A DNA stretch of 64,000 nucleotides from Elusimicrobiales bacterium (GCA_041665305.1 JBAYJD010000004.1:27383-91382); one strand, 5' to 3'; counted from the first letter of the stretch, positions 11,198 to 46,389 are shown. Made by a program: numbers and translations. The notes: a model not told the origin generated them from the letters alone.

Positions 11198-11228
11198 TTA
11201 AAGTTTTCCCTCCCGTAGTTGCTAAATA

Positions 11229-12730: not shown

Positions 12731-12830
12731 GATGGTACGGAAAACAAATATAGACTTTAGGCCGGAGGTTTGTGTTCGGCATCTTGCCTGCGGTCTAAGC
12801 CCACAGCCTATTTACCTGGATTCCACTTTT

Positions 12831-12859
12831 ATTTTAGCAGTATATAAGCGGGTAATCAA
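12831..12859 (-). promoter_or_regulatory. Candidate sigma70-type promoter for wzm-wzt and downstream genes
   Basis: The minus strand reads TTGATT, 17 nt, TAAAAT. It sits in the 152-nt spacer upstream of wzm and would give a 5' UTR of roughly 95 nt. Confidence 0.45.
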
Positions 12860-12882
12860 ATTTGAAGGCTAAGAAAGCCGGG

Positions 12883-22394: not shown

Positions 22395-23171
22395 CTAAAA
22401 CTCTAAAGACTTGATATAGGCCTCAAACATCCTGACTTTGTTACTGTCTCCACTGTTGACAAGAAAGGGTTCAAGGTCTCCCGCCAGCTCATTAAGATTT
22501 AATTCGGAAGTTCTGGCCAGAAGCCGTTCTTTTAGGCCGCGCCCGTCGGGAATGCCTGTTTTGTCGCGAAGATATCGGTAATTCGGTTTAGTTTGAGGCA
22601 TGAGGAACGCGATATCATAAAAATCCCTTCCTTTGGCGCGGGGACGGTTTAACGCCGCGTAAATCTTCTGCGATAAAAGAAGATCGATCGGGGAGGCATA
22701 GATCTGGGTAAACACATCGAATTTATTAAGGATCTTCAGGTCCCTCGCGTAATCAAACGCATGAGGAACGGTATCCATTTGTATCAGGATCTTTTCGTCA
22801 CGCAGGCCGGAAATATCGTTATCGAACAATACTCCGGGGAACCTGATATAGGACCGGTACGCCCCCTTAAAGACATTCTTTATTTCCACCGCATAGCCTT
22901 GCAGTTCCAGACCGCGTTTGACCGCCCCGGCAAGATCCGCGAACGCCCGCTCTGTAAGACCGAAATTATCAAAATCCAGGTCTTCTGAAAACCGATTGTT
23001 GCCGTAAACTATACGCAAAGCCGTTCCGCCAAGAAAAGCCAGGCCGCGGCCGGTCTCAGTATTAAACACTATTTCAAGTATCTTGCATTGTAGGTATTCC
23101 CGCAGGATATTACGTTTAAAAGGCCGTTCCCTGGGCGGATAATACTTTTCAATGTTCACAAGACTAAGCAT
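22395..23171 (-). CDS. abiEii: AbiEii/AbiGii-family nucleotidyltransferase toxin (type IV TA)
   Basis: AFLGGTALRIVYGNNRFSEDLDFD nucleotidyltransferase motif. The gene starts 3 nt downstream of the antitoxin gene. Confidence 0.8.
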   Translation of the reverse strand: MLSLVNIEKYYPPRERPFKRNILREYLQCKILEIVFNTETGRGLAFLGGTALRIVYGNNRFSEDLDFDNFGLTERAFADLAGAVKRGLELQGYAVEIKNVFKGAYRSYIRFPGVLFDNDISGLRDEKILIQMDTVPHAFDYARDLKILNKFDVFTQIYASPIDLLLSQKIYAALNRPRAKGRDFYDIAFLMPQTKPNYRYLRDKTGIPDGRGLKERLLARTSELNLNELAGDLEPFLVNSGDSNKVRMFEAYIKSLEF

Positions 23172-23174
23172 GGT

Positions 23175-23795
23175 TTATAGATCCAGGAACCGGCCGACTC
23201 TGGACGACAAGGCTCGCACGCCGAAAGCGTCAAGATATTTATTAAGCCTGCTCGTATCGGCTTTAGCTTTAAACTCGGCGGAATTAAATCGTAAACTTTC
23301 AAAATCCACGGCATCTTTTATGCGCGGATTAAGATATAAAAAATCAAGCAGGGCCTTTTCAATTTCAGCCACCAGCACCCGGCGGCCATTTTTCTCTCTG
23401 AGTTCATATCCGAACATCAGCGAAGGCTTGAGCTGCTTATAGGTAAAAACGCCTATGTTTGTTTTAAACTGATTTGTTTTTTGCGAAGTCACCGAAGTTA
23501 TGGCATAAACGGCTTCCGGAATAAGCCCATACAGAGAAAGCGCCATCTCAAGAGAAATATATGACGGCTTATAGATAGTATTGGCGATCAGAAACAACTC
23601 ATGTTCATCTAAACCGGCATCAGAAAAAATATAGTAGCCTCTCCTGACCTTATTTATATAACCTTTTGCCATCCATTCGTTTATGCGCCTGAAATCAAAA
23701 TCTGGCGCAATTTTTCTAACATCGGCCAGACCAAAAACATCGAAGCCTTTTAATTTTTCTTTGAAATTTAAAAATTTCATATCATATAATTCCAT
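23175..23795 (-). CDS. abiEi: AbiEi-family antitoxin / transcriptional regulator
   Basis: 206-aa protein upstream of abiEii with an AbiEi-like N-terminal wHTH region (FDVFGLADVRKIAP...RINEWMAKGYINKVRRGYYIF). Confidence 0.7.
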   Translation of the reverse strand: MELYDMKFLNFKEKLKGFDVFGLADVRKIAPDFDFRRINEWMAKGYINKVRRGYYIFSDAGLDEHELFLIANTIYKPSYISLEMALSLYGLIPEAVYAITSVTSQKTNQFKTNIGVFTYKQLKPSLMFGYELREKNGRRVLVAEIEKALLDFLYLNPRIKDAVDFESLRFNSAEFKAKADTSRLNKYLDAFGVRALSSRVGRFLDL

Positions 23796-23893: not shown

Positions 23894-23924
23894 CTCAATA
23901 TTTCCGCAGGCAGCTTTTGAGCAT
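23894..23924. repeat. 31-bp direct repeat, copy 2 (functional 3' end of the colD-like gene)
   Basis: Encodes MLKSCLRKY plus the stop of the colD-like ORF. Identical to 22331-22361. A degenerate partial third copy (ctcaatatatttcgggcgta) lies at 23861-23880. Confidence 0.95.
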
Positions 23925-25070
23925 GTCCAGGTCGGCTTCGGTAAGCTCCGGGTAATTGCCGAAGTAAAAGCCGCATTCGTGCAGGAACTGGCCGCCTTTA
24001 AGCTGCCAGTCGCCTTTAACATACTTGGCGAAAAAGGGCTGATGCTGCATATTGCCCGCTATAACAGGACGGATTTCCACACCGTCACCGGAGAACTGCT
24101 CGATGTATTTGGCGCGCAGTTCCCTGGTCTTGCAAAGCACCGGAAAAGCGAAATTGGAAACGAAGGAAAGATGTCCGTGCTTTATCGGCAGCAAGTCCGG
24201 ATTATTATTGACCTCTTCTTCAAGCGCCAGATAATTTTTCTGACGGACCTGACAATTTTCATCCAGGTATTTAAGCTGGGTTAAACCCAAAAATCCTGTG
24301 ATCTCGGTAGGCCGCAGATTAAAGCCGAGGTCATAAAAAGTATATTTGGCCTCAAATTCGCTCTTTACGCCGTATTTTTCCCGCAGGCGGCGCTGGGCCG
24401 AGAAGTTAAGGTTGCGGTCCCAACCGTTGGCGCGGGTTATACGCAGCATTTCGTCCAGCTCGTCGTCATCAGCGCAGGCGCAGCCGCCTTCTATGGTGGA
24501 CATATGATGAGCCACAAAAAAAGAAAAAGTGGAGGCCAGGCCGAAATTACCGGTTTTCCCCCCTGGCAGGACCGTGCCGAGGGATTCGCAATTATCCTCT
24601 ATGAGCAGGACGCCGTTTTTTTTGCAAAGTTCGCGGATCTCACCCAGGTCACCGGCGAACCCCAGCGCGTTGGTGATAAAAAAAGCGTTCAATTTTACCT
24701 TTTTAAGGGTTTCGGAAAGGTTGGCGGCCATGCAGTTAAGCGTCTGAGCCTCGCAGTCCACCGGCACGGCTTTCATGCCAAGCTGAAGGATGGGCATAAC
24801 ATTGGTGGACCAGGTAAGGGCTGAAAAGCCCACGGTATCGCCGTCTTTAAGACGGCCCAGATTCTTAAGGGCCTGGAGCAGGGCCAGGTTGGCGCTGCCG
24901 CCGCTGTTAAAAAGGATGCAATGCCGCCGCCCCTGCGCCTTGGCGAAAGCCTTCTCGAACTCCCGGCATTTTTCGCCCATGCTAAGGATTTTGGCCTTAA
25001 GTATAAAATCCACCAGTTCTTTTTTGGTTTCATACTCGTTCAGGAATGTGTTCTTCATTAACGGGATCAT
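23895..25070 (-). CDS. colD: GDP-4-keto-6-deoxy-D-mannose 3-dehydratase-like PLP/PMP enzyme (ColD-like, DegT family)
   Basis: DegT-fold protein in which the Schiff-base Lys position is His (TFSFFVAHHMSTIEGG). LIEDNCESLG and RANGWDRNL blocks match my recollection of E. coli ColD. RBS GAAGGA. Confidence 0.7.
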   Translation of the reverse strand: MIPLMKNTFLNEYETKKELVDFILKAKILSMGEKCREFEKAFAKAQGRRHCILFNSGGSANLALLQALKNLGRLKDGDTVGFSALTWSTNVMPILQLGMKAVPVDCEAQTLNCMAANLSETLKKVKLNAFFITNALGFAGDLGEIRELCKKNGVLLIEDNCESLGTVLPGGKTGNFGLASTFSFFVAHHMSTIEGGCACADDDELDEMLRITRANGWDRNLNFSAQRRLREKYGVKSEFEAKYTFYDLGFNLRPTEITGFLGLTQLKYLDENCQVRQKNYLALEEEVNNNPDLLPIKHGHLSFVSNFAFPVLCKTRELRAKYIEQFSGDGVEIRPVIAGNMQHQPFFAKYVKGDWQLKGGQFLHECGFYFGNYPELTEADLDMLKSCLRKY

Positions 25071-25118
25071 AAGTATTTTCCTTCGGGAAAGCCGCTTGCT
25101 TTACGCAGAAATTGCTTT

Positions 25119-25158
25119 CTTCCAACCTTCCAAACCTCTAACCTTCTAACCCTCACCG
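25119..25158. repeat. Degenerate 8-nt tandem array (cttccaac family), intergenic
   Basis: Five units: cttccaac cttccaaa cctctaac cttctaac cctcaccg. The array overlaps the fcl/colC-like stop codon and lies about 50 nt upstream of the colD-like start. Confidence 0.9.
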
Positions 25159-26085
25159 TTTCCCCTGACCTTCCAGTCCTTTAAAAAACTCATAAGCCTT
25201 GGCTATTCCGTCCTTCAGCGATGTGGACGGCGCCCAGCCCCAGGCGGCCTGACGGGCGGTGTCTACCAGCTTTTGTTTCATGCCCGCCGGCTTGGACAGG
25301 TCGTGGGTGAACGCGCCTGTATAACCGACTACTTCGGCCACGGTCTGATAATAGTCGTTGACTGAATGATCGAGCCCCAGTCCGGCATTCATCAGGTCCG
25401 GCAGGGTGTCGAAATCGGTTATGGCTTTATGGATGCAGCCGGCGATATCACCGGCGTACATAAATTCCCTGCGGGTCAGGCCGTCTCCCCAGATCTCTAC
25501 CGACTTGCCCCCATTCAGCTTTGCCAGATGCAGTTTACGGATGACAGCCGGGATCATGTGGGAGTGCTCGGGGGAGAACTTATCCCAGCGGCCATAAAGG
25601 TTGCACGGAATAAGGGTTTTATAGCGGAACTCCGGGATTTCTTTTGAAATATAGGCGCACAGCCTGGAAACCACGACCTTTGCCAATGCGTAGCCTTCAT
25701 TGGTAGGCTCAAGTTCGCCCTGTAGAACCATTTCCTCTTTAAGAGGATTGGGGGCGTTGCGCGGATACATGCAGGAACTGCCCAGATTTATAAACTTTAT
25801 AACGCCGCAGTTGCGGGCGGCCCAAACGGTATTGCGGCCCATATCCATATTTTCAAGCAGGAAAGCCACAGGGTTGGCCATATTGGCCTGTATGCCGCCG
25901 ACGCGGCCCGCGGCGTGGATAATGATGTCCGGCTTAATTTTTGCCATGTAGGCCCTGACAGCTTCGTAATCAAAAAGATCAAGCTCCGGGAGATCCGGCG
26001 CAAAAAACTCATGTTTCGAAGCGGCGGGATGTTCAAGGATATTGCGCCCGACCATCCCCGAACCGCCCGTCAGCATAACTTTCAT
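25153..26085 (-). CDS. GDP-L-fucose synthase family (Fcl / GDP-L-colitose synthase ColC-like)
   Basis: VMLTGGSGMVGRNI, LGSSCMYP, EPTNEGYALAKV, SHMIPAVIRK. Start taken at ATG 26085 (MKVMLTGG), 4 nt after the upstream stop. Confidence 0.75.
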   Translation of the reverse strand: MKVMLTGGSGMVGRNILEHPAASKHEFFAPDLPELDLFDYEAVRAYMAKIKPDIIIHAAGRVGGIQANMANPVAFLLENMDMGRNTVWAARNCGVIKFINLGSSCMYPRNAPNPLKEEMVLQGELEPTNEGYALAKVVVSRLCAYISKEIPEFRYKTLIPCNLYGRWDKFSPEHSHMIPAVIRKLHLAKLNGGKSVEIWGDGLTRREFMYAGDIAGCIHKAITDFDTLPDLMNAGLGLDHSVNDYYQTVAEVVGYTGAFTHDLSKPAGMKQKLVDTARQAAWGWAPSTSLKDGIAKAYEFFKGLEGQGKR

Positions 26086-26089
26086 AAGA

Positions 26090-27199
26090 TCACCCTCTAA
26101 TACCGTGGTCACCGGCCTGGCGTCGATCGCGGTAACTTTGTTTAAACTCCGCCAGCGCGGAACAAACTTCTCCCTCTTCGAGGTCGTTAACTCTTAACAT
26201 TTCAAGATCATCATTAACCATGACCAAAGCCAGCTGCGCGCCGGTCCGTTTTTTGTCCCGCCCCATAGCGGAGATCATCTCGGCCTCTTCCAGACGAACC
26301 TGCCCAAAATCAAATTTTAAGATCGGCAGCAGAAGCTGCGCTATGAATTTTTCGGTTTTAACGGACAAGAGCCCCCGTTGCCGCGCAACGATGTCAGCCA
26401 GCAGGATGCCTGCCGCGACCGCGACCCCGTGAGGGACAAGAAAATCGCCGGCGGACTCTATCGCGTGCCCGAAACAATGGCCGAAGTTAAGCATGTTCCT
26501 GCGCCCTGAATCGAATTCATCGTCCTCTATATAATCCTTCTTGATCTCAAGAGCCGCCTTGAGAAACCGTTCCAGAGAACCGGGATCCCTCCCTGCCAGT
26601 TTGCCGGAGGTGTTGGAGAAATCTTCGGCACGCCGCTTCCCGCCTATTATGCACAATTTGGCGATCTCTCCCAAGCCGCTCAGATAATCTTCGTCTTTCA
26701 GGGTTGAAATAAACCTCGAAGAAATAAACACCTCGGAGGGCGGATAAAAAGTGCCTATAAGGTTCTTATAGCCTCTATAATTAAGGGAGGTCTTTCCCCC
26801 TATACAGCTGTCGGCCTGGGCCAGCAGCGTAGTGGGGACGAACGTCCATTTGATCCCCCTGTAAAGGGTAGAGGCGGCAAAACCCGTAATATCCTGCGTT
26901 ATTCCCCCGCCGATGGAAACAAGACGCATATTCTTTTTAGTGGCAAGTCCGGCTAGGCGATCATACAGCATCTGCACGGAGTTCAGCGTCTTAACCTCTT
27001 CGCTGACGGGGAGGATGATGTTCGGAAAGGCCTCCAAAAGCTTTAGCGCGGAATTTTTGTGCAAGCGCCAGACATTTTCATCGATCACGAACACACAACA
27101 GGGGTCTGCGGCCAGACGGGGTAGATATGCTTCCGTCTCCCCGAAAAAAACGCCGTAGTCCCTCAGCCTGGAGCCGACGATAAAATTATCTAAAGGCAA
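26090..27199 (-). CDS. 3-dehydroquinate synthase-like sugar phosphate cyclase family protein
   Basis: GGGITQDITGFAASTLYRGIKWTFVPTTLLAQADSCIGGKTSLN and NFGHCFGHAIES match DHQS-family nucleotide and metal motifs. TTG start overlapping the SDR stop. Confidence 0.7.
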   Translation of the reverse strand: MPLDNFIVGSRLRDYGVFFGETEAYLPRLAADPCCVFVIDENVWRLHKNSALKLLEAFPNIILPVSEEVKTLNSVQMLYDRLAGLATKKNMRLVSIGGGITQDITGFAASTLYRGIKWTFVPTTLLAQADSCIGGKTSLNYRGYKNLIGTFYPPSEVFISSRFISTLKDEDYLSGLGEIAKLCIIGGKRRAEDFSNTSGKLAGRDPGSLERFLKAALEIKKDYIEDDEFDSGRRNMLNFGHCFGHAIESAGDFLVPHGVAVAAGILLADIVARQRGLLSVKTEKFIAQLLLPILKFDFGQVRLEEAEMISAMGRDKKRTGAQLALVMVNDDLEMLRVNDLEEGEVCSALAEFKQSYRDRRQAGDHGIRG

Positions 27200-27858
27200 G
27201 TATAGCCCCCATCGGCGACAATTGTCTGCCCCGTAATATAGGTGTTTTGGGCTGAAGCCAAAAAGGATACGATCTCGGCTATTTCCGGAGGCTCAGCCAG
27301 GCGTTTTACGGGTATAGCCTGTGAAATAACCCGGATAGCGTCTTCGGAATTATTTCTGCGCGTGAGTTCCGTGTTCACAAATCCTGGCGCCACAGCGTTA
27401 ACCAGAACCCCGTACTGGGCGCATTCGACAGCGGCCGCCCTGGTCATGCCGTTGACAGCCGCCTTGGCGGTGGAATAAACGAACCTGCGCGGTTTTGCCA
27501 CGAGGCTCCAGACCGAACTGATATTTACGATCCTGCCGTATCCCCCGGAGCGCATTGAAGGGAGCACGCCGCGGATAAGCCGCATAGGAGCCGTAAGGTT
27601 CACCTGCATGATCGAGATCAAATCGTCATCCGAGTACTCCTCGGCGGAGCCGATAGGATTTATTCCGGCATTGTTTACCAGGATCTCGACAGGACCGGCG
27701 ATACCGCGGAGATATTCGTCTATGGATCCGTTTGAAGACAGATCAAGTTCGGCGCGCGGAGGCGTAAGCAAAACCGCCCCTTTTTGCCTGAAGGCTTCCG
27801 CGATGGCCCTGCCGATCCCCTTTGAAGCGCCTGTGATAAGGGCCGTACGGCCTTTCAT
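27190..27858 (-). CDS. Short-chain dehydrogenase/reductase (classical SDR, FabG-like)
   Basis: TGASKGIGRAIA, NNAG, YSTAKAAV. ATGA overlap with the upstream aldolase gene. Confidence 0.85.
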   Translation of the reverse strand: MKGRTALITGASKGIGRAIAEAFRQKGAVLLTPPRAELDLSSNGSIDEYLRGIAGPVEILVNNAGINPIGSAEEYSDDDLISIMQVNLTAPMRLIRGVLPSMRSGGYGRIVNISSVWSLVAKPRRFVYSTAKAAVNGMTRAAAVECAQYGVLVNAVAPGFVNTELTRRNNSEDAIRVISQAIPVKRLAEPPEIAEIVSFLASAQNTYITGQTIVADGGYTCL

Positions 27859-28670
27859 GTTATTTTCACTCCGGCCTCTTCAATAAGGCGTTTGTATCGT
27901 TTTTCAAGCATATTTATGCGTTGTTCGTCTTCAGCATATATCCCACCGTAAAAATTGCGTTTATTCATAAGCCACATCAACTCAAAACCCACGGCTTTAA
28001 GGATGCCGCTGGGGGCGTCGTCTTTTAAGGATTCAGGGCACTTAAATATAACCTTGCGGGTTTCATACCGGTCCAGCAGCCCGTTGGGAAGTCTTTTAAA
28101 GAAAGGCAGGGAATCTTTTGAGACTCCGCCGCCCACCACGCACTCAAGGCCTTTTTCTTTGGCTTTGGTGAAAAGCTCTTTGGTGATCTCAAATATCGCG
28201 TCGGAATTAATATCTTCCCGCGTCATTCCGAGAGAACCTGTCATATCAACACGCCCCAGCACAATACCGTCAAGTTCCGAGATCCCGTCTATTTTCAGCA
28301 TTTCATCAAAATTTTCGAAGCCCATCACCGTCTCTATATTCGCCAGCAAAGACACCTGCTGCATCTCATCTTTCGGAAATACCATTTTAGCGGCGCTCAG
28401 GTATTTCTTCAGCGCGTAAGGGGATTCTATCATGGGCGCCACTATTCTACAGGCCCCTATAGACCTGGCATCATACATGTCTTTCAGGGCTTCACAGCCG
28501 CCGACCTTGATAGTCAGTTCAAGACCGGCGCGGGTTACAACTTCCTTAAGGCGCAGCGCCTCCTCAAGACGGGTGCCTTCGGCCTCAAATTCGGCTTTGA
28601 TGCCGGCTACATTATGATTCGCCTTCAGGTCCTGAAGCACTTCTACCATCTGCCTTTCCAGATTATTCAT
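27855..28670 (-). CDS. HpcH/HpaI aldolase / citrate-lyase-beta-like TIM-barrel protein
   Basis: AEFEAEG, IVAPMIESP, ANIETV and GRVDM blocks are typical of the HpcH/PEP-utilising barrel family. Start taken at ATG 28670 (MNNLERQ), preceded by GGGAG. Confidence 0.6.
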   Translation of the reverse strand: MNNLERQMVEVLQDLKANHNVAGIKAEFEAEGTRLEEALRLKEVVTRAGLELTIKVGGCEALKDMYDARSIGACRIVAPMIESPYALKKYLSAAKMVFPKDEMQQVSLLANIETVMGFENFDEMLKIDGISELDGIVLGRVDMTGSLGMTREDINSDAIFEITKELFTKAKEKGLECVVGGGVSKDSLPFFKRLPNGLLDRYETRKVIFKCPESLKDDAPSGILKAVGFELMWLMNKRNFYGGIYAEDEQRINMLEKRYKRLIEEAGVKIT

Positions 28671-28754
28671 AATACTCCCGCCTTTGTGATCGATTCCGGC
28701 CTCCGGCCGCACTCACATCTTACAAAACATTAGAAATTCCTGCCGCAAAAATTT

Positions 28755-30545
28755 TTAATCAATAATGTTGCGCTGGAATTCTTCCCTGTCCAGAAAAGGC
28801 CACATATCCTCCAGCGGCTTGGAGACCATGCCGCCGTCGGGCTTCTTTTCCGATGATAGTTTGGGCATAAATTTATGATCCGCAGGCAATCTCACATCGC
28901 AAAGCGCCGGACCCTTTACCGCCAGGATCCGCGCAATTTTTTCGCTCATATCGGCGACGCAGTGGATGGTCTCGGTGTACAGGCCGAAAGCTCCGGCTAC
29001 TTTGACAAAATCAGGAAATCCGACCCCCGATCCGGGATCGCAGGCTACATAACGGCTTTCAAAAAAATTTTCCTGGGTTTGTCTGATGGAAACATAACCT
29101 TCGTTGTTCAGAACGAATATTTTCACCGGCAGCCTGTAATGCGCGATGGTGGCGAGTTCCTGTATATTCATCATAATGCTGCCGTCACCCGCCAGGCAAA
29201 CCACTTCTTTTTTACCGCCGCCGATGCAGGCCCCTACCGCCGCCGGAAGATCGTATCCCATAGAGGCGCAGCCGGAATTCCAGAATATCCGTTGTCCTTT
29301 TTTAACTATCCCTGCCTGGAACAGGCAGACGCAGGCGGAGCCGTTGCCCGCCGCCACAGGGGTATCCGGCGCAAGCATGGCCGTAAGAGTTTCCATAAAA
29401 TGGTATGGATTGACTTTGGTTTTAAGTTTTTTATACTCTTCAAGAACAACCGGGTACCTGACCGACCGCTCCCGGCACCAGGCCAGCCAGCCGGAGAAGT
29501 CCCCAAGCCCCTCAACCGGGATCTCCGATAGAAGACCGGCTATGAAATCCTTAACATCCGCAAGTACAGGCAAATCCGGTTTTACCGTGGGCTTGGCCAA
29601 TTCGGACGGGTCGATATCCACGATTATTTTTTTAGCTTTTTTCGCGTAATTGTCCCAGTCATAACTTATCTGGCGGACATTGTTGCGGGAACCCAGCGAA
29701 AGCACCAGATCGGCGTTCTGCAGTGAAAAGTTTCCGCCCCTGGTGCCTACGGTGCCTATCCTGCCGGCGTACCAGGGGCTGTCATTGGGCACGAGGTCAA
29801 AACCGGCGAAGGTCGCCAGCACGGGTATTTTTAAATTATCAGCCAGTTTTTCAAACAACTCTCTGGCGCCCGCTAACGCTATACCATGTCCGGCGATCAT
29901 CACCGGCCTTTTAGCCGATCTCAGCATTTCAACCGTTTTGCAAATCTGGGCCTTACAGCCGTCATCGGCCGGAACCGGTATTTCAGGTTCATAGGGAACA
30001 AGTGCATCCTCGTCTATCAACGCCGCCTGGACATCCAGCGGTATATCTATCCACACAGGTCCCGGACGCCCGGTCATGGCCGTATGAACCGCCTTATCAA
30101 GCACATACTTTACCTGATACGGATCCGTCAGCATCTGGGAAAACTTTGTAACCGGCTTGACTATCTCGGCGATATTAATTTCCTGGTCGCCAAGCTGGCG
30201 CAGCCCGGTTTCAGGACAGAAGGCGGTCGTGGTCTTGAACTTCACCTGGCCGGAAATGTACAACGCCGGGATCGAATCCAGCCACTGGCCTATAACGCCG
30301 GTTAAGGTATTGACGCCGCCCGGACCGGTGGTAACGATAGAAACTCCAAGTTTATCCGAGACGCGGGAATAGCCCTCCGCCCCTATAGCGGAAGCCTGCT
30401 CATGATGATTACAGATATATTCCAGCCCTTTGCACTTGCCCACGGAATCGTTGAGATGCATGGCCCCGCCGCCGGAGATCATAAACACATGCTTTACGCC
30501 GTGTTCCACAAGCCTTTTGGCCACATAATCGGATAGTTTTATCAT
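28755..30545 (-). CDS. Thiamine-diphosphate-dependent enzyme, acetolactate-synthase-like (YerE-like candidate)
   Basis: N-terminal Pyr domain (VKHVFMISGGGAMHL) and ThDP-binding motif CLAGDGSIMMNIQELAT...FVLNNEGY. Start taken at ATG 30545 (MIKLSDY). Confidence 0.8.
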   Translation of the reverse strand: MIKLSDYVAKRLVEHGVKHVFMISGGGAMHLNDSVGKCKGLEYICNHHEQASAIGAEGYSRVSDKLGVSIVTTGPGGVNTLTGVIGQWLDSIPALYISGQVKFKTTTAFCPETGLRQLGDQEINIAEIVKPVTKFSQMLTDPYQVKYVLDKAVHTAMTGRPGPVWIDIPLDVQAALIDEDALVPYEPEIPVPADDGCKAQICKTVEMLRSAKRPVMIAGHGIALAGARELFEKLADNLKIPVLATFAGFDLVPNDSPWYAGRIGTVGTRGGNFSLQNADLVLSLGSRNNVRQISYDWDNYAKKAKKIIVDIDPSELAKPTVKPDLPVLADVKDFIAGLLSEIPVEGLGDFSGWLAWCRERSVRYPVVLEEYKKLKTKVNPYHFMETLTAMLAPDTPVAAGNGSACVCLFQAGIVKKGQRIFWNSGCASMGYDLPAAVGACIGGGKKEVVCLAGDGSIMMNIQELATIAHYRLPVKIFVLNNEGYVSIRQTQENFFESRYVACDPGSGVGFPDFVKVAGAFGLYTETIHCVADMSEKIARILAVKGPALCDVRLPADHKFMPKLSSEKKPDGGMVSKPLEDMWPFLDREEFQRNIID

Positions 30546-30552
30546 GTATGGT

Positions 30553-31434
30553 CTATTTGTCCACAAGCAACGCTTCCCTGTTTATGGACTTCTTATTAGC
30601 GTGATACCATGAATAAAGTTTTTTGATAGCCGCGTCAAGCGGAGTGAAAGATATAGTTTTTACCTCTGTTTTCAATCTGGAATTATCGCCGCTGTATTCG
30701 GCGCCCAGCCCCGGCCGGGCGACTTTAACAGGCAAATCTTTGCCGGCAACTGAAAGGACCCGTTCGGCCAGCTCTATAAGCTCCACGGATGTATCCGGGG
30801 TGACATTATAAGCCTGGTGCTCCGCCATGTTCTCCAAAAGGTATTCTATAACAGGATAGAGGTCGTCGATCCACAGATAATCGAACCTGCGGTTCTGTTT
30901 TATCGTAAGCGGCAGGTCGAAAATAGCCTTGCAGATCATGTTGGAAATAAAGCGGATGGAATAATCCTCGTATTTGCCGTAAATACCGAAAACGCGCAAG
31001 TCGGTTATCTTGCCGGTTTTCTCCATGTATTTGCCGCATACATATTTGCAGAACCCGTGCTCATCGGCGGGGACATGCGTATCAAAATAATTTTCTTTCA
31101 TTTTCGGCCGGTAATAGCGCATATCGTATATGGCGCCGGAACCTATCACCAGCATTTTTTTAAAATATTCCGCGTTGCGGGCTAGATTAAAGAACATCCG
31201 GGTGTTCTCATACAGGACTTTCCCCGGCTCCTCGGAGTTGCGGTGTCCCGGCTTCGCGGCGGCGTGTATAACAAAATCAAAACCCCCGTTTTTCAAACAG
31301 TTTTTTACCGCGTCATCGTTTAAAAGATCCAGATCGGCATGCCCTGGAGCGGCTATGCGGTATTTCCGGGCAAGCGGAGATTCAAGGAGATTTCTCCCGA
31401 TAAACCCGCTTCCTCCTGTAAGAAGGACCTTCAA
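30553..31434 (-). CDS. NAD(P)-dependent sugar epimerase/reductase (YerF-like candidate)
   Basis: VLLTGGSGFIGRNLL Rossmann motif. TTG start overlapping the upstream small-ORF stop (TTGA). Confidence 0.65.
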   Translation of the reverse strand: MKVLLTGGSGFIGRNLLESPLARKYRIAAPGHADLDLLNDDAVKNCLKNGGFDFVIHAAAKPGHRNSEEPGKVLYENTRMFFNLARNAEYFKKMLVIGSGAIYDMRYYRPKMKENYFDTHVPADEHGFCKYVCGKYMEKTGKITDLRVFGIYGKYEDYSIRFISNMICKAIFDLPLTIKQNRRFDYLWIDDLYPVIEYLLENMAEHQAYNVTPDTSVELIELAERVLSVAGKDLPVKVARPGLGAEYSGDNSRLKTEVKTISFTPLDAAIKKLYSWYHANKKSINREALLVDK

Positions 31435-31676
31435 GCGCGCCCCCGGAAACCGGCTATGGCGGGGTGTTTGTCACGGCAATCCTGGCATATCAGCACGGTC
31501 AGAAACGCCAGAGCGATGGTTTTTAAATACGCGCCTTCGGCGTCAATTTTAGAAACAGCGGTCTTCACATACCGCCACACGAACCAGGTGAATACCAAGA
31601 GCATGGCGACAAGCACAAAGTCATGGTGGACATCTTCTTTTACGATAAAATCCACGACATAGTCGGATAATTTCAT
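31431..31676 (-). CDS. Small hypothetical protein (two hydrophobic segments); possible gene remnant
   Basis: 81-aa ORF with no recognisable RBS. Its N-terminus (MKLSDYVVDFIVKEDVHHDF) mimics the N-terminus of ThDP enzymes, including the neighbour's (MIKLSDYVAKRLVEHGVKHVF). Confidence 0.3.
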   Translation of the reverse strand: MKLSDYVVDFIVKEDVHHDFVLVAMLLVFTWFVWRYVKTAVSKIDAEGAYLKTIALAFLTVLICQDCRDKHPAIAGFRGRA

Positions 31677-31686: not shown

Positions 31687-33126
31687 CTATTTATTCAACG
31701 GCGTAAAACCGCTGAAGGATTTAACCATATATTCGAGCATTTGCTTTGTCATGCCGGGGTAGACGCCTATCCAGAAGGTGGAGGACATGATGGTATCGGT
31801 AACGGGCAAAGCGGAAGGGCGGCCGGAAGCGGAAACCACACGGAAGCCGCTGCCGGAGCGGCGCATTTCGTCGAAACAGGGGTGCTTTATAAGATTGCCG
31901 GCGAACAGCATGCGGGTCTGGATCTTGTTCTTCTCAAGGTGCGCGACAAGCTGATCGCGGGTAAAACCGGCGTTCTCTTTGACAGTCAGCATAAAACCGA
32001 ACCAGCTGGGATCTGAATCCTGCGCCGGTTCCGGAAGGATAAGCCTGTCTGAAAAAACATCGAGGGCTTTGCGCAGATATTGCCAGTTCTTTTTGCGGGC
32101 ATCTATGAATCCCGGGAGTTTTTCCAGCTGCGCCAGGCCTATGGCCGCCTGCATCTCGGTGGCTTTGAGGTTATAGCCGAAATGGGAATAGACATACTTA
32201 TGATCGTAACCTGACGGAAGTTCGCCGAACTGCTGCGTGAATCTTTTGCCGCAGGTATTATCCTTGCCGGAAGGACACCAGCAATCGCGGCCCCAGTCGC
32301 GGAAAGAATCCACCAGCCGCTTTAACTGGGGATTATTGGTGTATACAGCCCCACCCTCGCCCATAGTCATATGATGCGGCGGGTAGAAGCTGGAAGTGCC
32401 GATGTCGCCGAATGTCCCGGTGTATTGGGAACTACGAGGGTTGGATGACCTGCCGGATAAAGGAATGCCTTCTTCTAACCCTCCAACCTTCCAACCTTCC
32501 AACCTTCTGTATTTACTCCCCAATGCGTCGCAGTTGTCTTCTATCAACCAAAGGTTGTGTTTTTCGCAGAAAGATTTTACGGCTTTAAGGTCGAAGGGGT
32601 TGCCGAGGGTGTGGGCGGCCATTACGGCTTTTGTTTTTTTGGAAACGGCTTTTGCGAGCAGGGAACAATCCATGTTATATGAGGGCAGACTGACATCCAC
32701 GAACACGGGGACCGCGCCGTACTGGATGATGGGGGTTACGGTCGTGGGGAACCCGGCGGCGACGGTTATAACCTCGTCTCCGGGGTTTATCCGCCTGGCG
32801 CCCAGTTTGGGAGAGGTGAGGGCCATGAAGGCCAGCAAATTGGCCGAGGAGCCGGAATTAACCAGGGAAACATGCCTGACCCCGAGGAATTCGCCTAATT
32901 TTTTTTCGAAAGCGTCAACATAGCGGCCGGAGGTAAGCCAGAAATCCAGGGCGGAATCGACGAGGTTCGCCACCTCTTTTTCGTCAAAAACCCTGCCGCC
33001 GTAAGCGACATGGGATTTGCCGGGCTCAAAATCTTTCTTTTTATGGAAAAGGCGGTGGTATTGCGAAACTTTGCCGAGTATTTCTTTGCGCAGCTGTTTG
33101 TCCGTTACGACCGTCTTAAGATTCAT
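31687..33126 (-). CDS. rfbH: CDP-6-deoxy-D-xylo-4-hexulose 3-dehydrase (E1), with an in-frame repeat insertion
   Basis: FYPPHHMTMGEGG (His in place of the PLP Lys), RDWGRDCWCPSGKDNTCGKRF (Fe-S Cys cluster), GYNLKATEMQAA. It carries about 29 extra residues (RRLEGWKVGGLEEGIPLSGRSSNPRSSQY). Confidence 0.85.
   Translation of the reverse strand: MNLKTVVTDKQLRKEILGKVSQYHRLFHKKKDFEPGKSHVAYGGRVFDEKEVANLVDSALDFWLTSGRYVDAFEKKLGEFLGVRHVSLVNSGSSANLLAFMALTSPKLGARRINPGDEVITVAAGFPTTVTPIIQYGAVPVFVDVSLPSYNMDCSLLAKAVSKKTKAVMAAHTLGNPFDLKAVKSFCEKHNLWLIEDNCDALGSKYRRLEGWKVGGLEEGIPLSGRSSNPRSSQYTGTFGDIGTSSFYPPHHMTMGEGGAVYTNNPQLKRLVDSFRDWGRDCWCPSGKDNTCGKRFTQQFGELPSGYDHKYVYSHFGYNLKATEMQAAIGLAQLEKLPGFIDARKKNWQYLRKALDVFSDRLILPEPAQDSDPSWFGFMLTVKENAGFTRDQLVAHLEKNKIQTRMLFAGNLIKHPCFDEMRRSGSGFRVVSASGRPSALPVTDTIMSSTFWIGVYPGMTKQMLEYMVKSFSGFTPLNK
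32472..32511. repeat. 8-nt tandem array inside rfbH
   Basis: cttctaac cctccaac cttccaac cttccaac cttctgta. An inverted single unit, gagggttgga (32436-32445), is complementary at 9 of 10 positions to 32474-32483. Confidence 0.9.
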
Positions 33127-33230: not shown

Positions 33231-33980
33231 TTAAAGCTTGATGCGGAGCCCGTCTACGGCGGCCTGGGTGTTTTTAAATATTTTCCGGGCTATTTTCTGG
33301 GCGTTAGCGCGGTCGTTCATGGCGGGGTATCTGTCGGCGCCGAAATGGGCGAGAGCCAGTTTTTTAGCCCCGGCCTTTTTTGCAAGCGCCGCCGCGCTTG
33401 CGGGGTCCATATGGGGCCAGCCGGGATTGGTTTCCCCCGGTCTGTGGGCGCATTCGCTTATCAGAAGGTCGGCGTTTTGCGCCAGTTTCACGGAGTTGGC
33501 GCAGGGGCCTGTGTCGGTGCAATAAGCGACCGCCTTGCCGTCTATCTCGAATCTGTAGCCGAGTACCGGGTCCGCGTGGACCAAAGGCAGGCATTTCAGG
33601 GTAAAAGGAAGCCTTGCGGCGTCCGAGGGCAGTTCCAGGACTTCGGTCTTATATTTCAGGTTTTTCAGCGGCACGGTGAACGGACGGCGCAGGATCAGGG
33701 CCAGCGTTTTCCTGGCGCCTTTGCCCGCGCAGATAGTGAGGCCTTTTTTGAACCTGGAATTAAATTTCACCAGTATATGCAGACCGGCGATATGGTCCAG
33801 ATGAAAATGGCTTAAGAACAAGTAAATGGGTTTGGAGCCGTCCACATATTTGCCCAGCTTATAAAGGCCGTTGCCGGCATCCAGGACAATATCATATTTT
33901 TCGGTTTTAACCAGCACGCAGATAGCGTTGCCCGTTTTTGTATCATACCAGCCGTTGGTTCCGAGGAAGATTATTTCCAT
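33231..33980 (-). CDS. MBL-fold metallo-hydrolase (RNase Z/BN-like)
   Basis: LSHFHLDHIAGL metal motif, CTDTG and SECAH blocks. Start taken at ATG 33980 (MEIIFLGTNGW). Confidence 0.75.
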   Translation of the reverse strand: MEIIFLGTNGWYDTKTGNAICVLVKTEKYDIVLDAGNGLYKLGKYVDGSKPIYLFLSHFHLDHIAGLHILVKFNSRFKKGLTICAGKGARKTLALILRRPFTVPLKNLKYKTEVLELPSDAARLPFTLKCLPLVHADPVLGYRFEIDGKAVAYCTDTGPCANSVKLAQNADLLISECAHRPGETNPGWPHMDPASAAALAKKAGAKKLALAHFGADRYPAMNDRANAQKIARKIFKNTQAAVDGLRIKL

Positions 33981-34012
33981 AATAAAAGCACCTTGTTTAC
34001 TATACGCAGATC

Positions 34013-35320
34013 TTAATGGCTTCTGATCGGAAATTCGAGCGCCCATTTATAGAAGGGGAGCGCCCGCACTGTTACACCGTCCAGGCGCTCCTCATACTCT
34101 TCCGACCAAGTTACTATCTTACCCGCCGCAAGATTAAGAGATTTACAGGCTTTAATCAAGCCGCTGAACTCCCTTTTCTTTGTTGAAGGAGAAGTGAGAT
34201 CACAAGCCGCCTGAAACACCTCCGGAGGGCCCTGCTCGTTAAGCCGCACAAAATCACACTCGCTGCCGCCTTTTATATAGTAGATCTCACTTCCGGCGGT
34301 GTGAAGCTCCGTAAAAACGGCGTTTTCAAGCAGCTTGCCGCGATCTTCGGAAAACCCGAAAGACACGGAGGTCGCCAGCCCGTTATCGACCACATATATC
34401 TTTTTCTCGGAACCTTCCCGTTTTATAAGCGATTCATTATATTTTTTCAACGGGAAAAAGAAATATATCGCGCGCAGCTCTTCCAGTAATTCGTATAAAA
34501 GATTTTTATCGGCTTTATAGCCCTGTGAATGGAGCTCATTATAGATCTTGTGCACGGACACCGGGGTCGAAATGCAGGCTAAAAGACGCTTTATAAAATA
34601 CTTCAGCAGATGCGCATGCGGCTTGCGTTCATACCGCTCGATAAGGTCCTTAAACAACATCACATTAAAATATTCCTGCAATGTTTTCACTCTCAGCCCC
34701 TCCTCCATTGAAAGGACTTCGGGAAAACCGCCGGCACGCAGATATTCTTCGGATTTAGCCGCCACCCTGTTCCTTGAAGCGGCGGGATACATCTCCGCCG
34801 CCGTTCCGGAGAAAGACAGATATTCCCGGAACGATAAGGGGTAGACTTCATAAGTCAGATTACGCCCGCGTAAACTTGTGGAGATGTCGGTGCTTAGTAA
34901 TTTAGAATTGGAGCCCGTCAAAAAAACATTTTTAGAAACGGAGTCATACACCCGGCGGACAAATTTTTCCCACCCCTCGACATTCTGGATCTCGTCAAAA
35001 AAGAAATAAGATTTCGAGAGATCCGCATCCGGATAAAGCTCACCATAAGCCTGCAGGATCAGGTCCAGGTCGTCTCTCCCGGCCTCTAAACGCTCATCTT
35101 CAAAATTCACATATATAATGCCGCGTATATCCGCGCCGCGCGCTAAAAGCCGTGAAACAGCATCCAGAAGAAGGAAGGTTTTTCCGCTGCGGCGTACGCC
35201 GGATACAGCAACGACCTTACCTGAATCCAAAGGCACGCTGATAAACCGTTTTTTAACGGGAGGAACCGGTCGTGTCTGGAAAGAGCGAATTATCTCTTTA
35301 AACACTTCTTTCTTGACCAT
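34013..35320 (-). CDS. AAA-family ATPase with DUF4143-type C-terminal domain
   Basis: Walker A GVRRSGKTFLL and Walker B FFFDEIQ. The C-terminal block (GSECDFV) is typical of the COG1373-type ATPase family. Confidence 0.75.
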   Translation of the reverse strand: MVKKEVFKEIIRSFQTRPVPPVKKRFISVPLDSGKVVAVSGVRRSGKTFLLLDAVSRLLARGADIRGIIYVNFEDERLEAGRDDLDLILQAYGELYPDADLSKSYFFFDEIQNVEGWEKFVRRVYDSVSKNVFLTGSNSKLLSTDISTSLRGRNLTYEVYPLSFREYLSFSGTAAEMYPAASRNRVAAKSEEYLRAGGFPEVLSMEEGLRVKTLQEYFNVMLFKDLIERYERKPHAHLLKYFIKRLLACISTPVSVHKIYNELHSQGYKADKNLLYELLEELRAIYFFFPLKKYNESLIKREGSEKKIYVVDNGLATSVSFGFSEDRGKLLENAVFTELHTAGSEIYYIKGGSECDFVRLNEQGPPEVFQAACDLTSPSTKKREFSGLIKACKSLNLAAGKIVTWSEEYEERLDGVTVRALPFYKWALEFPIRSH

Positions 35321-35388: not shown

Positions 35389-36537
35389 TCAACTTAATAT
35401 ATGACAATATTCTTCGATTTGCTTAATACACACTTCCCGCATGTCTTGACGGCGCTCGCAGGCTATCGTCCATTCTATGATCTTATCGATAGCCCGGCCT
35501 ATATGCCACCGTGGGGCCCAATGGAGTTCTTTTCTGGCCTTGGAAGAATCCAGTTTTAAGTAATGAGCTTCGTGGGGATGGGGACCTTTGTCTATGGCGT
35601 AGCCTGGGGCTTCGGGCCATTTGCGGAACATCCGCCTGACTATCCATTCCACATTTTTAGCGTCTCCGGCGTCGGGTCCGAAATTCCAGGCCTGGGCGTA
35701 GCGGGGGCCGTGCTTATATAGTTTTTCGGCCAGCATAAGATAGCCGTTCAACGGTTCAAGGACATGCTGCCAGGGACGGATGGCGCGCGGATTGCGGATA
35801 TGAACTTTCTCTCCCTTTAAAGCCGCCCGGATAATGTCCGGGATAAGCCGGTCCGCCGCCCAGTCCCCGCCTCCGATAACATTGCCGGCGCGGGCGGAGG
35901 CGAGCGCTATATGGTGGAGCGAAGGTTGGAGGGTTGGAGGGTTGGAGGGTTGGAGGGAGGCGGAGTAATTTTTGGGATTAAAGAAGGAACTGCGGTAGGC
36001 GGAGGTGACAAGCTCGGAACAGGCTTTGCTGGACGAATAAGGGTCGTAACCGCCCAAGGGTTCGTCTTCTTTATAGCCGCGCAGGTGTTCTTTATTCTCG
36101 TAGCATTTGTCGGTGGTGACATTGACTATGGCACGGACGGAACTGCATTTGCGGGCGGCCTCAAGCAGGTTTATAGTGCCCATGACATTGGTTTCGTAAG
36201 TTTCGCGCGGATCTTTATAAGACAGTCTCACAAGGGGCTGGGCGGCCATGTGAATGATTATGTCCGGCTTTGCCGCTAATACGGCTTTTTGCAGGCGGAC
36301 TGCGTCGCGCACATCGCCTATGGTCGTTTTTGTGATCTTTTTAAGCGCGCACAATTCATAAAGACTGGGGTTCGTATTGGGCTTTAAAGCGTAGCCGTAA
36401 ACCTTCGCACCGAGCGCGTGCAGCCAGATGGAAAGCCACGAGCCTTTAAAGCCGGTGTTGCCTGTTAAGAATACTTTTTGGCCATGCCAAAAAGTATGAG
36501 GGTTGGAGGGTTGGAGGGCTGGAGGGTTGGAGGACAT
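35389..36537 (-). CDS. rfbG: CDP-glucose 4,6-dehydratase, with two in-frame repeat insertions
   Basis: FWHGQKVFLTGNTGFKGSWLSIWL, YSSSKACSE, ARAGNVIGGGDW, RPWQHVLEPL. AGGAGA RBS inside the manC 3' end. Confidence 0.85.
   Translation of the reverse strand: MSSNPPALQPSNPHTFWHGQKVFLTGNTGFKGSWLSIWLHALGAKVYGYALKPNTNPSLYELCALKKITKTTIGDVRDAVRLQKAVLAAKPDIIIHMAAQPLVRLSYKDPRETYETNVMGTINLLEAARKCSSVRAIVNVTTDKCYENKEHLRGYKEDEPLGGYDPYSSSKACSELVTSAYRSSFFNPKNYSASLQPSNPPTLQPSLHHIALASARAGNVIGGGDWAADRLIPDIIRAALKGEKVHIRNPRAIRPWQHVLEPLNGYLMLAEKLYKHGPRYAQAWNFGPDAGDAKNVEWIVRRMFRKWPEAPGYAIDKGPHPHEAHYLKLDSSKARKELHWAPRWHIGRAIDKIIEWTIACERRQDMREVCIKQIEEYCHILS
35924..35955. repeat. Four perfect 8-nt units (ggttggag) inside rfbG
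   Basis: ggttggag x4 on the plus strand. Translated on the minus strand as ...SLQPSNPPTLQPSL... between the conserved FFNPKNY and ARAGNVIGGGDW blocks. Confidence 0.95.
36501..36532. repeat. Four 8-nt units (one variant) occupying the first codons of rfbG after the start
   Basis: ggttggag ggttggag ggctggag ggttggag on the plus strand. The minus strand reads ATG TCC TCC AAC CCT CCA GCC CTC CAA CCC TCC AAC CCT. Confidence 0.95.
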
Positions 36538-37983: not shown

Positions 37984-39096
37984 CTAACAATTCTTCAGGC
38001 CGGCGTAACCGGCTTTTTTAAGGCACAGTTCGCTTAAGGCCAGCTTAAGGTCGGCTGCGGCCATTTCGGAAACAAGCTGTCCGAAAGAGATCTCCGGCTT
38101 CCAGCCCAGCAATTTTTTCGACTTTGCGGGATCGCCCAGCAATGTATCGACCTCCGCAGGACGGTAGAACCCGGGATCCACGCGCACTATCACATCGCCT
38201 TTTTTGATCCTTATTTCTCCCGCAAGGCCGGGCAGCGGCTTGACCGAGCTTACTATTCCCAGCTCTTTTACGCCTTTGCCCTGCCAAGCCAGCGTTATGC
38301 CCAGCTCTTTGGCGGCGAACTCGATAAATTTGCGCACGGAATATTGCCTGCCGGTCGCGATAACGAAATCCTCGGCTTTTTTTTGCTGGAGGATCAGCCA
38401 CATGGCGCGCACATAATCCGCGGCATGGCCCCAGTCGCGCAAAGAATTCAGGTTGCCCATGTAAAGGCAGGGCTGGGCGCCGAGCAAAATGCGGGCCAGA
38501 GCGCGAGTGATCTTGCGGGTGACGAACTCTTCGCCGCGCAGCGGGCTTTCATGGTTAAAAAGGATGCCGTTGCTGGCGAAAAGGCCGTAAGCCTCGCGGT
38601 AATTCACGGTTATCCAGTAAGCGTACATCTTGGCCACGCCGTACGGGCTGCGCGGGTAGAACGGGGTCTTTTCGCTCTGGGGTATTTCCTGGACCTTGCC
38701 GAACAGTTCCGACGTGGATGCCTGATAAATGCGGGTCCGCTTCTGAAAACCCAGCAGGCGGACGGCCTCAAGCAGACGCATGGTGCCCAGGCCGTCGCAA
38801 TCGGCGGTATATTCCGGCTCTTCAAAACTTACGGCCACATGGCTCTGCGCTCCGAGGTTGTAAATTTCCACGGGCTTCACCTGCGCCACAAGGCGGATCA
38901 GGTTGGTGGAATCCGTCATATCGCCGTAATGCAGCTTCAGACGCGGATGTTTTAACATGTGGTCTATGCGCACGGTGTTTACGGAAGCGGAACGGCGGCG
39001 GATGCCGTGCACCACATAGCCTTTCCCTAGCAAAAGTTCCGCAAGATACGAGCCGTCCTGTCCGGTGATCCCTGTAATTAACGCTGTTTTAGACAT
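37984..39096 (-). CDS. gmd: GDP-mannose 4,6-dehydratase (canonical long form)
   Basis: [46 protein letters not shown]. Confidence 0.9.
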
Positions 39097-44172: not shown

Positions 44173-44191
44173 ATTCATTTCCCGCCGCCGG

Positions 44192-45181: not shown

Positions 45182-45246
45182 AATTGTTTTCCTTTTTCCT
45201 GAAACATCAAATGTCGTAAGACGACATTTTAAAGAACAATTCCCCT

Positions 45247-46338: not shown

Positions 46339-46389
46339 AATTAAAATACCGGCCTGCGGCGCGCCGCCCGCCGAAGGAACAGCCGCGGG

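Follow-up and report, generated by a model that had tools for sequence, protein, structure and literature searches.

Described pathways for sugars with long carbon branches are the closest parallels of the locus reported here. In the published scheme, pyruvate and an aldehyde are joined by an aldolase to a γ-hydroxy-α-keto acid, which is then ligated by a YerE-like enzyme to CDP-4-keto-3,6-dideoxy-D-glucose, and a reductase finally acts on the branch ketone, giving erwiniose, caryophyllose, or gastriose (Steitz et al. 2022, PMC9306805). ErwE and MMAR_2332 accept γ-hydroxy-α-keto acids (PMC9306805). Caryophyllose has a 1,3,4,5-tetrahydroxyhexyl branch with a methyl end (PMC5706390). Pyruvate and a C4 unit would be expected to give such a pattern once a terminal phosphate is lost and the ketone is reduced; judging from the structure of this sugar, the published aldehyde '28' would be a 4-deoxytetrose. 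Here, we analyzed a stretch of 64,000 nucleotides (hereafter, the window; positions are counted from its first letter) of an Elusimicrobiales metagenome-assembled genome (MAG; GCA_041665305.1, JBAYJD010000004.1:27383-91382). At 26090-31434, its minus strand carries five co-directional genes encoding a reductase, a YerE-like thiamine diphosphate (ThDP) enzyme, a divergent class II aldolase, a short-chain dehydrogenase/reductase (SDR), and a protein resembling 3-dehydroquinate synthase (DHQS).

We propose that this cassette encodes the side-chain half of the pathway to a caryophyllose-type, long acyl-branched 3,6-dideoxyhexose, made for an ABC-transporter-dependent surface glycan, and we give this reading a rough probability of 0.55. 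Three components of the YerE-type scheme were present, namely, the ThDP enzyme gene, the adjoining aldolase gene at a distance of 84 nt, and the reductase gene at a distance of 7 nt. The caryophyllose pathway of Mycobacterium marinum (MMAR_2331, aldolase/citrate lyase family; MMAR_2332, ThDP enzyme) and the cluster of Rhodopseudomonas palustris CGA009, as proposed in PMC9306805, likewise combine an 'aldolase/citrate lyase family' aldolase, a YerE-like carboligase, an NAD(P)H-dependent reductase, and CDP-4-keto-3,6-dideoxyglucose genes, of which those for the cytidylyltransferase, the 4,6-dehydratase, and E1 were found in the window, and the product predicted here, with a C6 branch and a methyl end, has the same constitution as caryophyllose. 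In the M. marinum proposal, the source of the methyl-terminated C4 aldehyde is unexplained, whereas the SDR and DHQS-like pair is proposed as its origin here. The erwiniose cluster of Pectobacterium atrosepticum (ErwE, ErwF, ErwI, and ErwJ) also proceeds from a pyruvate aldolase through ThDP-dependent ligation to a CDP-keto sugar to ketoreduction, and ErwE rejects pyruvate and requires γ-hydroxy-α-keto acids. However, ErwI and ErwJ are a BphI/BphJ-type aldolase-dehydrogenase pair of an unrelated aldolase family, which uses acetaldehyde and gives a C4 branch, and neither a phosphate nor a DHQS-like enzyme takes part. The yersiniose A pathway of Yersinia pseudotuberculosis (YerE and YerF) differs in that YerE uses pyruvate to add a two-carbon branch and that aldolase, SDR, and DHQS-like genes are absent.

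The gene junctions in the cassette were compact. The reductase gene (30553-31434) ends with TAG at 30553-30555, and the ThDP enzyme gene (28755-30545) starts with ATG at 30545, 7 nt further on. The stop codon of the latter, TAA at 28755-28757, is separated by the 84-nt gap from the aldolase ATG at 28670, and GGCGGGAG lies just before that ATG. The stop codon of the aldolase gene (27855-28670) and the start codon of the SDR gene (27190-27858) are joined in an ATGA overlap (27855-27858), and the DHQS-like gene (26090-27199) starts with TTG at 27199, giving a 10-nt overlap with the SDR gene, whose stop codon TAG is at 27190-27192. The same proteins in the same order were found in contig JBAZBE010000008.1 of GCA_041671625.1 and in two independent read assemblies. 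Because identical proteins and gene order occur on independent assemblies and the genes recur in dozens of other genomes, they are real genes rather than chance open reading frames (ORFs). These observations agree with a preliminary description of the window made from the sequence: all five ORFs were found on the minus strand where it had placed them, the overlapping stop and start codons that it had reported at the aldolase/SDR and SDR/DHQS junctions were seen, and both motifs that it had noted in the DHQS-like protein, VPTTLLAQADSCIGGKT and NFGHCFGHAIE, were present. Its domain assignments were confirmed by Pfam and NCBIfam matches, of which that to HpcH_HpaI was weak, yet above the cut-off, and its assignment of the ThDP enzyme as YerE-like was borne out by the comparisons given below.

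The YerE-like ThDP-dependent carboligase contains three TPP_enzyme domains. Its top match in PDB was JanthE (8rph, YerE-like) with 423 bits (E 1.8e-125), followed by an acetohydroxyacid (acetolactate) synthase with 261 bits, and every NCBIfam model for acetohydroxyacid synthase scored far under its cut-off. By analogy with its homologues, the enzyme would decarboxylate an α-keto acid, the donor, and attach it at C4 of a CDP-4-keto-3,6-dideoxyhexose. The reductase is a YerF-like extended SDR with an epimerase fold (PF01370 Epimerase, 1.4e-21; RmlD_sub_bind), whose gene lay directly upstream of the ThDP enzyme gene in most loci of the tblastn census described below. This protein is a predicted reductase that, like YerF and ErwF (PMC9306805), would reduce the ketone at C1′ once the branch has been attached.

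The aldolase (271 aa) matched PF03328 HpcH_HpaI with 2.5e-9 and 37.2 bits (cut-off 25) and is, by its sequence, a distant member of the HpcH/HpaI family of metal-dependent class II aldolases. Its AlphaFold2 model (mean predicted local distance difference test score, 95) has a long extra C-terminal helix (residues 219-266), and the best Foldseek matches of this model were HpaI, HpcH, and YfaU (probability 1.00; template modeling score, 0.53-0.57). For the two acidic metal ligands, E113 (NIET) is aligned with VES and D142 (GRVD) with GPADL of YfaU. The protein shares the TIM-barrel fold and alignable metal-ligand motifs with HpcH, HpaI, and YfaU, which make 4-hydroxy-2-keto acids from pyruvate and aldehydes. 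Unlike these enzymes, to which it is just 12-16% identical (template modeling score, ~0.55), it has the extra helix, its proposed acceptor is phosphorylated, and its family is unusually conserved, with relatives that nearly always have 270-271 aa and share 65-90% identity across phyla. The aldolase would join pyruvate to an aldehyde that carries a phosphate, with erythrose 4-phosphate as the likeliest candidate, and would form a 3-deoxy-2-ulosonate phosphate. The motif GFELMW is lost in distant aldolase subfamilies. Two plasmid-borne homologues belonged to other subfamilies and were uninformative: that of Novosphingobium humi (46% identical) lies beside CDP-glucose-type genes, with no ThDP or DHQS gene among the plus-strand ORFs scanned around it, and that of Ilyobacter (40% identical) lies amid organic-acid catabolism genes. 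A homology search with an actinobacterial aldolase of this family gave no Mycobacterium in its top 120 matches.

The SDR (222 aa) is a classical ketoreductase (adh_short_C2, 3.7e-48), for which no NCBIfam model reached its cut-off. In the census, its gene directly followed the aldolase gene and then preceded or overlapped the DHQS-like gene, with two loci (L024 and L053) as exceptions. The DHQS-like protein (DHQ_synthase, 5e-34; DHQS_C, 7e-27) is of the TIGR04425 kind, a hypothetical equivalog family named 'AroB-related putative sugar phosphate phospholyase (cyclizing)' in NCBIfam. It scored 382.1 bits with TIGR04425, a near miss of the cut-off of 400, and 250.5 bits with the aroB model TIGR01357, under the equivalog cut-off of 305. 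Homologues from the same cassette in Paenibacillus and Effusibacillus, 52-53% identical to the window protein, are named TIGR04425 in NCBI, and on this similarity the window protein is treated as a member of the same functional group. In a phmmer search of PDB, the four best matches were DHQS structures (141-149 bits; ~30-35% identity), and lower scores were obtained with DOIS (2d2x, 119 bits), with 4p53, deposited as 'Cyclase' (93 bits), which we take to be ValA, and with 5tpr, deposited as 3-dehydroquinate synthase (77 bits), which we take to be a DDGS. By these scores, the protein is nearer to DHQS than to DOIS or the sedoheptulose 7-phosphate cyclases.

When the window protein and 35 members from other loci were aligned with E. 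coli AroB, all AroB residues for catalysis and for binding of 3-deoxy-D-arabino-heptulosonate 7-phosphate (DAHP), namely, R120, D136, K142, N152, E184, K187, K226, R240, N244, H247, H251, H264, and K323/K324, were kept in 36/36 members. The assignment of individual residues to NAD+, metal, phosphate, hydroxyl, and C1 carboxylate binding follows the A. nidulans DHQS structure. Profile placement and such an active-site fingerprint had both been proposed in the preliminary description as ways of checking the protein, and they gave TIGR04425 over aroB, DHQS as the nearest solved structures, and a complete AroB active site. Beside the catalytic residues, the family differs from AroB at two places, where DSS is replaced by DSC (C132) and GHT by GHC (C242). 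Divergent variants that accompany the aldolase in L030 (11566-12705) and L026 (~2829-3900), 33-36% identical to the window protein, keep DSC and have the AroB-like GHT; therefore, the first cysteine is the more general hallmark.

These features point to an NAD+- and metal-dependent β-eliminating phospho-lyase that would act on a DAHP-like aldol product and would remove the phosphate to leave a methyl end, probably with no ring built. The invariance of the DAHP-binding residues, including those for the C1 carboxylate, argues for a DAHP-like carboxylated substrate and for action after the aldolase, and the conserved active site suggests a C7 substrate and thus erythrose 4-phosphate as the aldehyde. 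With AroB and the sugar phosphate cyclases (DOIS, EEVS, DDGS, and EVS), the protein shares its fold, its sites for NAD+ and the metal, and all residues in contact with DAHP, and the first three chemical steps are probably common to them. It is unlike them in its separate NCBIfam family and its DSC and GHC motifs, in the location of its gene in a glycan cluster, coupled to an SDR gene and swappable with a phosphatase gene, and in its proposed product, a linear methyl ketone. To our knowledge, no non-cyclizing member of the sugar phosphate cyclase superfamily has been described.

To survey the cassette, one genome per species was scanned with an alignment of the aldolase; relatives were found in 437 species genomes, and the 80 best loci were taken for tblastn. 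These loci came from Elusimicrobia, Margulisbacteria, Saganbacteria, Spirochaetes, gut Bacteroidales (including the cultured Gabonibacter massiliensis), Actinomycetota, Chloroflexi, Rickettsiales, Nitrospirae, Gammaproteobacteria, and Firmicutes. A Paenibacillus and other Elusimicrobia had the five genes in exactly this order, and the same five were present in Effusibacillus, with the ThDP enzyme and reductase genes transcribed divergently from the aldolase-SDR-DHQS triad. The core consisted of the ThDP enzyme, the aldolase, and usually the reductase; the ThDP enzyme and aldolase genes were adjacent in nearly all 80 loci, and the cassette was often located beside CDP-glucose genes. Among the 39 loci with long flanks, the ThDP enzyme, rfbF, rfbG, and rfbH were found in 38, 32, 30, and 31, respectively, and the reductase at an identity of at least 45% in 26.

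The slot after the aldolase gene was variable. It was occupied by the SDR and DHQS-like genes (class A) in 28 complete loci, with aldolase-SDR gaps of 6-45 nt in 26 of the 28 and SDR-DHQS gaps of -6 to +36 nt. One additional locus had the SDR with a divergent DHQS gene, and in five the SDR gene lay at the contig end. The aldolase-SDR gap was 111 nt in L050, and the SDR-DHQS pair of L024 was located ~9 kb upstream of the aldolase gene. In 27 loci, the slot held a gene for a haloacid dehalogenase (HAD)-family phosphatase (class B; gaps of -12 to +164 nt), and in about 12 it held neither module. The phosphatases were of two types, with Hydrolase_6-type exemplars giving the best match in 12 loci and a HAD_2-type exemplar in 15. 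No locus of the census had the HAD gene together with the SDR and DHQS-like genes in the slot directly after the aldolase. The claim of a co-conserved module in the preliminary description was upheld by this co-occurrence search, which it had itself proposed: the triad recurs in many phyla.

The core proteins, in contrast to the slot, did not separate by class. The mean identity of the aldolases was 67.5% between classes versus 68% within class A, and the closest cross-class pair (L051/L048) was 96.6% identical. Residues of the aldolase, the ThDP enzyme, and the reductase that would track the HAD or the DHQS module were sought, and no alignment column discriminated between the classes. Since the core is indistinguishable between the classes, the same aldol product would be handled in two ways, one of which is plain dephosphorylation. 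The occurrence of two independent kinds of HAD phosphatase or of the SDR and DHQS-like pair after the same aldolase is most simply read as indicating that the aldol product bears a phosphate that needs to be removed. The version with aldolase, HAD phosphatase, ThDP enzyme, and reductase beside rfbF, rfbG, and rfbH was observed in 11 loci of gut or fecal Bacteroidales (L027, L029, L032, L034, L036, L037, L046, L057, L059, L062, and L067), including the cultured Gabonibacter massiliensis and a Sanguibacteroides. These bacteria are predicted to make a hydroxyl-terminated long-branched dideoxyhexose; we know of no report of such a sugar in them.

In the proposed pathway, RfbF, RfbG, and RfbH would supply CDP-4-keto-3,6-dideoxy-D-glucose, and the aldolase would form a DAHP-like 3-deoxy-hept-2-ulosonate 7-phosphate from pyruvate and a phosphorylated aldehyde, for which D-erythrose 4-phosphate is the likeliest candidate. 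The DHQS-like enzyme would then perform the first three DHQS steps, namely, NAD+ oxidation at C5, β-elimination of the phosphate, and re-reduction, and the enol would be freed or protonated to the 6-ketone instead of being cyclized. If it does not attack the C2 ketone, such an enol tautomerizes to a methyl ketone; therefore, with a coupled ketoreductase, an (ω-1) hydroxyl group and a terminal methyl group would be expected. The translationally coupled SDR would reduce the (ω-1) ketone left by the lyase, here the 6-ketone, to give 3,7-dideoxy-heptulosonate with a CH3 end. Subsequently, the YerE-like enzyme would decarboxylate this α-keto acid and join it to C4 of the CDP-keto sugar, a reaction type shown for homologues in the literature, and the YerF-like reductase would act on the C1′ ketone to give CDP-3,6-dideoxy-4-C-(1,3,4,5-tetrahydroxyhexyl)hexose, a name that denotes the constitution only. 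In the sister loci, the HAD phosphatase would take the place of the lyase and SDR step and leave a terminal CH2OH. A broader proposal, to which we give slightly less than even odds, is that the TIGR04425 enzymes are the first non-cyclizing members of the DHQS superfamily, in which the enol is diverted to a methyl ketone for reduction by the SDR and the CH3 or CH2OH end is set by the module swap, in hundreds of species including gut Bacteroidales. Cys132 and Cys242 may be involved in diverting the enol.

The core of this pathway is of a known type. The preliminary description had stated that no characterized glycan module of this composition was known, which does not hold for the aldolase, ThDP enzyme, and reductase as a set, since such a set was described for erwiniose, caryophyllose, and gastriose (PMC9306805). 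For the SDR and DHQS-like pair, no published role was found, and the literature search, which did not take in the survey of >200 YerE-like clusters by Krug et al. 2024, yielded no paper that deals with TIGR04425 or with an AroB-like gene of branched-sugar clusters. What is new here is the alternation of a lyase and SDR with a phosphatase, together with the proposed non-cyclizing DHQS-type reaction.

The order of the reactions could differ from that proposed. The DHQS-like enzyme and the SDR might act before the aldolase and convert erythrose 4-phosphate or another aldose phosphate to a terminally deoxygenated aldehyde such as 4-deoxytetrose, which would then be joined to pyruvate, the HAD phosphatase freeing the aldose in the sister loci. 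The swap of the HAD and DHQS/SDR modules suits either order, the donor of caryophyllose was drawn by Steitz et al. as pyruvate plus a free aldehyde, and the gene order of aldolase, SDR, and DHQS-like genes with overlapping codons is not decisive. However, the residues binding the C1 carboxylate of DAHP (K226 and R240 in E. coli) are invariant in the family and would be pointless for a tetrose phosphate, and we regard this order as unlikely.

Cyclization, the outcome preferred in the preliminary description, would yield a dehydroquinate-like carbocycle that is reduced by the SDR and enters the glycan as a cyclitol or carbasugar unit. Every characterized close relative (DHQS, DOIS, EEVS, and DDGS) cyclizes, all DHQS catalytic residues are kept, the NCBIfam name contains 'cyclizing', and the biosynthesis of carbocyclic lipopolysaccharide sugars such as caryose is still unexplained (PMC9092360). 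Nevertheless, cyclization uses up the C2 ketone and gives a product unfit as a ThDP donor, so the conserved ThDP enzyme and reductase would be left without an operon-encoded donor. In addition, a plain HAD phosphatase, which is unable to yield a carbocycle, fills the same slot on an indistinguishable core, and no ligase, acyltransferase, or nucleotidyltransferase that could activate a cyclitol acid is conserved in the cassette. Because cyclization destroys the α-keto acid needed by the ThDP enzyme and a phosphatase cannot replace a cyclase, we rate a carbocyclic product as rather unlikely, a little below the altered reaction order. The preliminary description had offered, for the trio of aldolase, SDR, and DHQS-like protein, either a cyclitol or carbasugar or a higher-carbon branched sugar; the evidence favors the latter, whereas the former is disfavored by the exchange of the SDR and DHQS-like pair for a HAD phosphatase.

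A late tailoring step, in which the ThDP enzyme takes the phosphorylated keto acid and the HAD phosphatase or the DHQS-like enzyme and SDR dephosphorylate the CDP-linked branched sugar afterwards, is improbable. The likeness of the ThDP enzymes in classes A and B is expected with a shared phosphorylated donor, but characterized YerE-like enzymes are donor-promiscuous, which accounts equally well for the absence of class-specific residues. Moreover, the DHQS-like enzyme retains its carboxylate-binding residues, though the ThDP step loses the carboxylate, and DHQS chemistry requires the pyranose form of the ulosonate. An ordinary shikimate-pathway aroB placed in the glycan cluster by chance, compatible with the ~30-35% identity to DHQS structures and the wholly conserved active site, is very improbable, as the protein did not group with aroB (250.5 bits vs the cut-off of 305, and 382 bits with TIGR04425), its gene is translationally coupled to the SDR gene and lies downstream of the aldolase gene in 28 loci of many phyla rather than in this genome only, and the surroundings are a glycan cluster with no shikimate genes nearby.

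Several points weigh against the proposed caryophyllose-type pathway. It is predicted from genes, by homology and analogy, and the chain length of the aldehyde is suggested solely by the conserved active site. The enol-pyranose intermediate of DHQS cyclizes readily, even off the enzyme, and therefore a non-cyclizing outcome needs an enzyme-controlled diversion, for which the two family-specific cysteines are the sole hint; the NCBI name of TIGR04425 includes the word 'cyclizing'. Among the census loci, about 12 have neither the HAD nor the DHQS/SDR genes after the aldolase gene, L063 carries both modules, with the HAD gene after the DHQS-like gene, and L053 has the SDR alone. In L054, a Bacteroidetes MAG, the aldolase-SDR-DHQS triad and a GT2 glycosyltransferase gene (10001-13600) stand alone amid rpsB, tsf, hemA, and hemC, with no ThDP enzyme, reductase, or rfb genes within 10 kb. 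Finally, no E3-type (Fer2/FNR-like) partner reductase for RfbH was found among the window ORFs.

The cassette lies in a single minus-strand glycan cluster of ~44 kb (30-44178), which contains rmlBDCA, rfbF, rfbG, rfbH, manC, gmd, an fcl/colC-like gene, a second DegT-family gene, many glycosyltransferase genes, two radical SAM enzyme genes, and a Wzm/Wzt-type ABC transporter. The genes for the acceptor, all on the minus strand, encode an rfbF/ddhA-type glucose-1-phosphate cytidylyltransferase (39136-39906; TIGR02623, 424.6 bits, cut-off 300), an rfbG/ddhB-type CDP-glucose 4,6-dehydratase (35389-36537; TIGR02622, 491.5 bits, cut-off 278), and an rfbH/ddhC-type (E1) CDP-6-deoxy-4-keto-glucose 3-dehydrase (31687-33126; NF011936 RfbH, 738 bits, cut-off 423). 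Judging from homology, RfbF would make CDP-glucose in the first step to the acceptor, RfbG would act as the dehydratase, and RfbH would give the 3,6-dideoxy-4-keto acceptor. Between rfbH and the reductase gene, an 81-aa ORF (31431-31676, minus strand) was called as a gene in two assemblies. It had no Pfam match and no tblastn counterpart in the other cassette loci, and its first 22 residues shared 45% identity with the N-terminal end of the ThDP enzyme. This ORF is probably a remnant resembling the 5′ end of the ThDP enzyme gene, possibly left over from a duplicated or rearranged copy, and its function is doubtful.

The second DegT-family gene (391 aa; top model RfbH, 213 bits, under the cut-off) is directly downstream of the fcl-like gene (GDP-fucose synthase model, 281 bits vs the cut-off of 500) at 23895-26112 on the minus strand, and a copy of this pair with 78-87% identity was observed in another Elusimicrobia locus (L011). 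Together with gmd (37984-39096) and manC (36544-37974), both on the minus strand, the pair looks like a GDP-colitose (ColD/ColC) route rather than a plain GDP-fucose route. The following genes are also on the minus strand. At 22395-23795, between the sugar-synthesis and glycosyltransferase genes, an AbiEii-type nucleotidyltransferase toxin gene and a gene for a 206-aa partner without a Pfam match were found, with a local G+C content down to 45%. The region between rfbH and rfbG (33231-35320) encodes an MBL-fold hydrolase (RNase Z/cyclic-nucleotide phosphodiesterase-like) and an AAA_14/DUF4143 ATPase, which do not belong to the cassette conserved in other loci. Amid the glycosyltransferase genes, there are genes for two radical SAM enzymes, one of them B12-binding (16192-17580) and the other at 6452-7915, which possibly function in glycan tailoring by C- or O-methylation or otherwise; in L061, a SPASM radical SAM gene comes after the HAD gene. 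A GT10 (fucosyltransferase-type) glycosyltransferase is encoded at 17573-18601, and a similar GT10 gene is located near the cassette in Effusibacillus (L007). The G+C content was 45-55% in the glycan cluster (1-44178) versus 58-61% in the housekeeping genes beyond 44 kb (44179-64000), which include those for ThrRS, a class I tRNA synthetase, ExbB/TonB, and a P-type ATPase. This contrast suggests a surface-glycan island that is hypervariable or has been exchanged laterally.

Caryophyllose and other sugars with long C-branches, which have antigenic and immunomodulatory properties, are known from only a handful of organisms. The occurrence of the cassette, as judged from aldolase relatives, in at least 437 species genomes of many phyla, including cultured gut bacteria, suggests that this chemistry is probably far commoner than glycan analyses indicate. 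The comparison supplies a concrete proposal for the function of an uncharacterized, widespread DHQS-like family and offers an origin for the methyl-terminated polyol part of caryophyllose-type branches. It also gives a sequence rule for the end group of the branch, in which a HAD phosphatase predicts CH2OH and an SDR with a DHQS-like enzyme predicts CH3. If the proposal is true, a DHQS relative that halts before cyclization would bear on the long debate over how far the enzyme controls the DHQS reaction.

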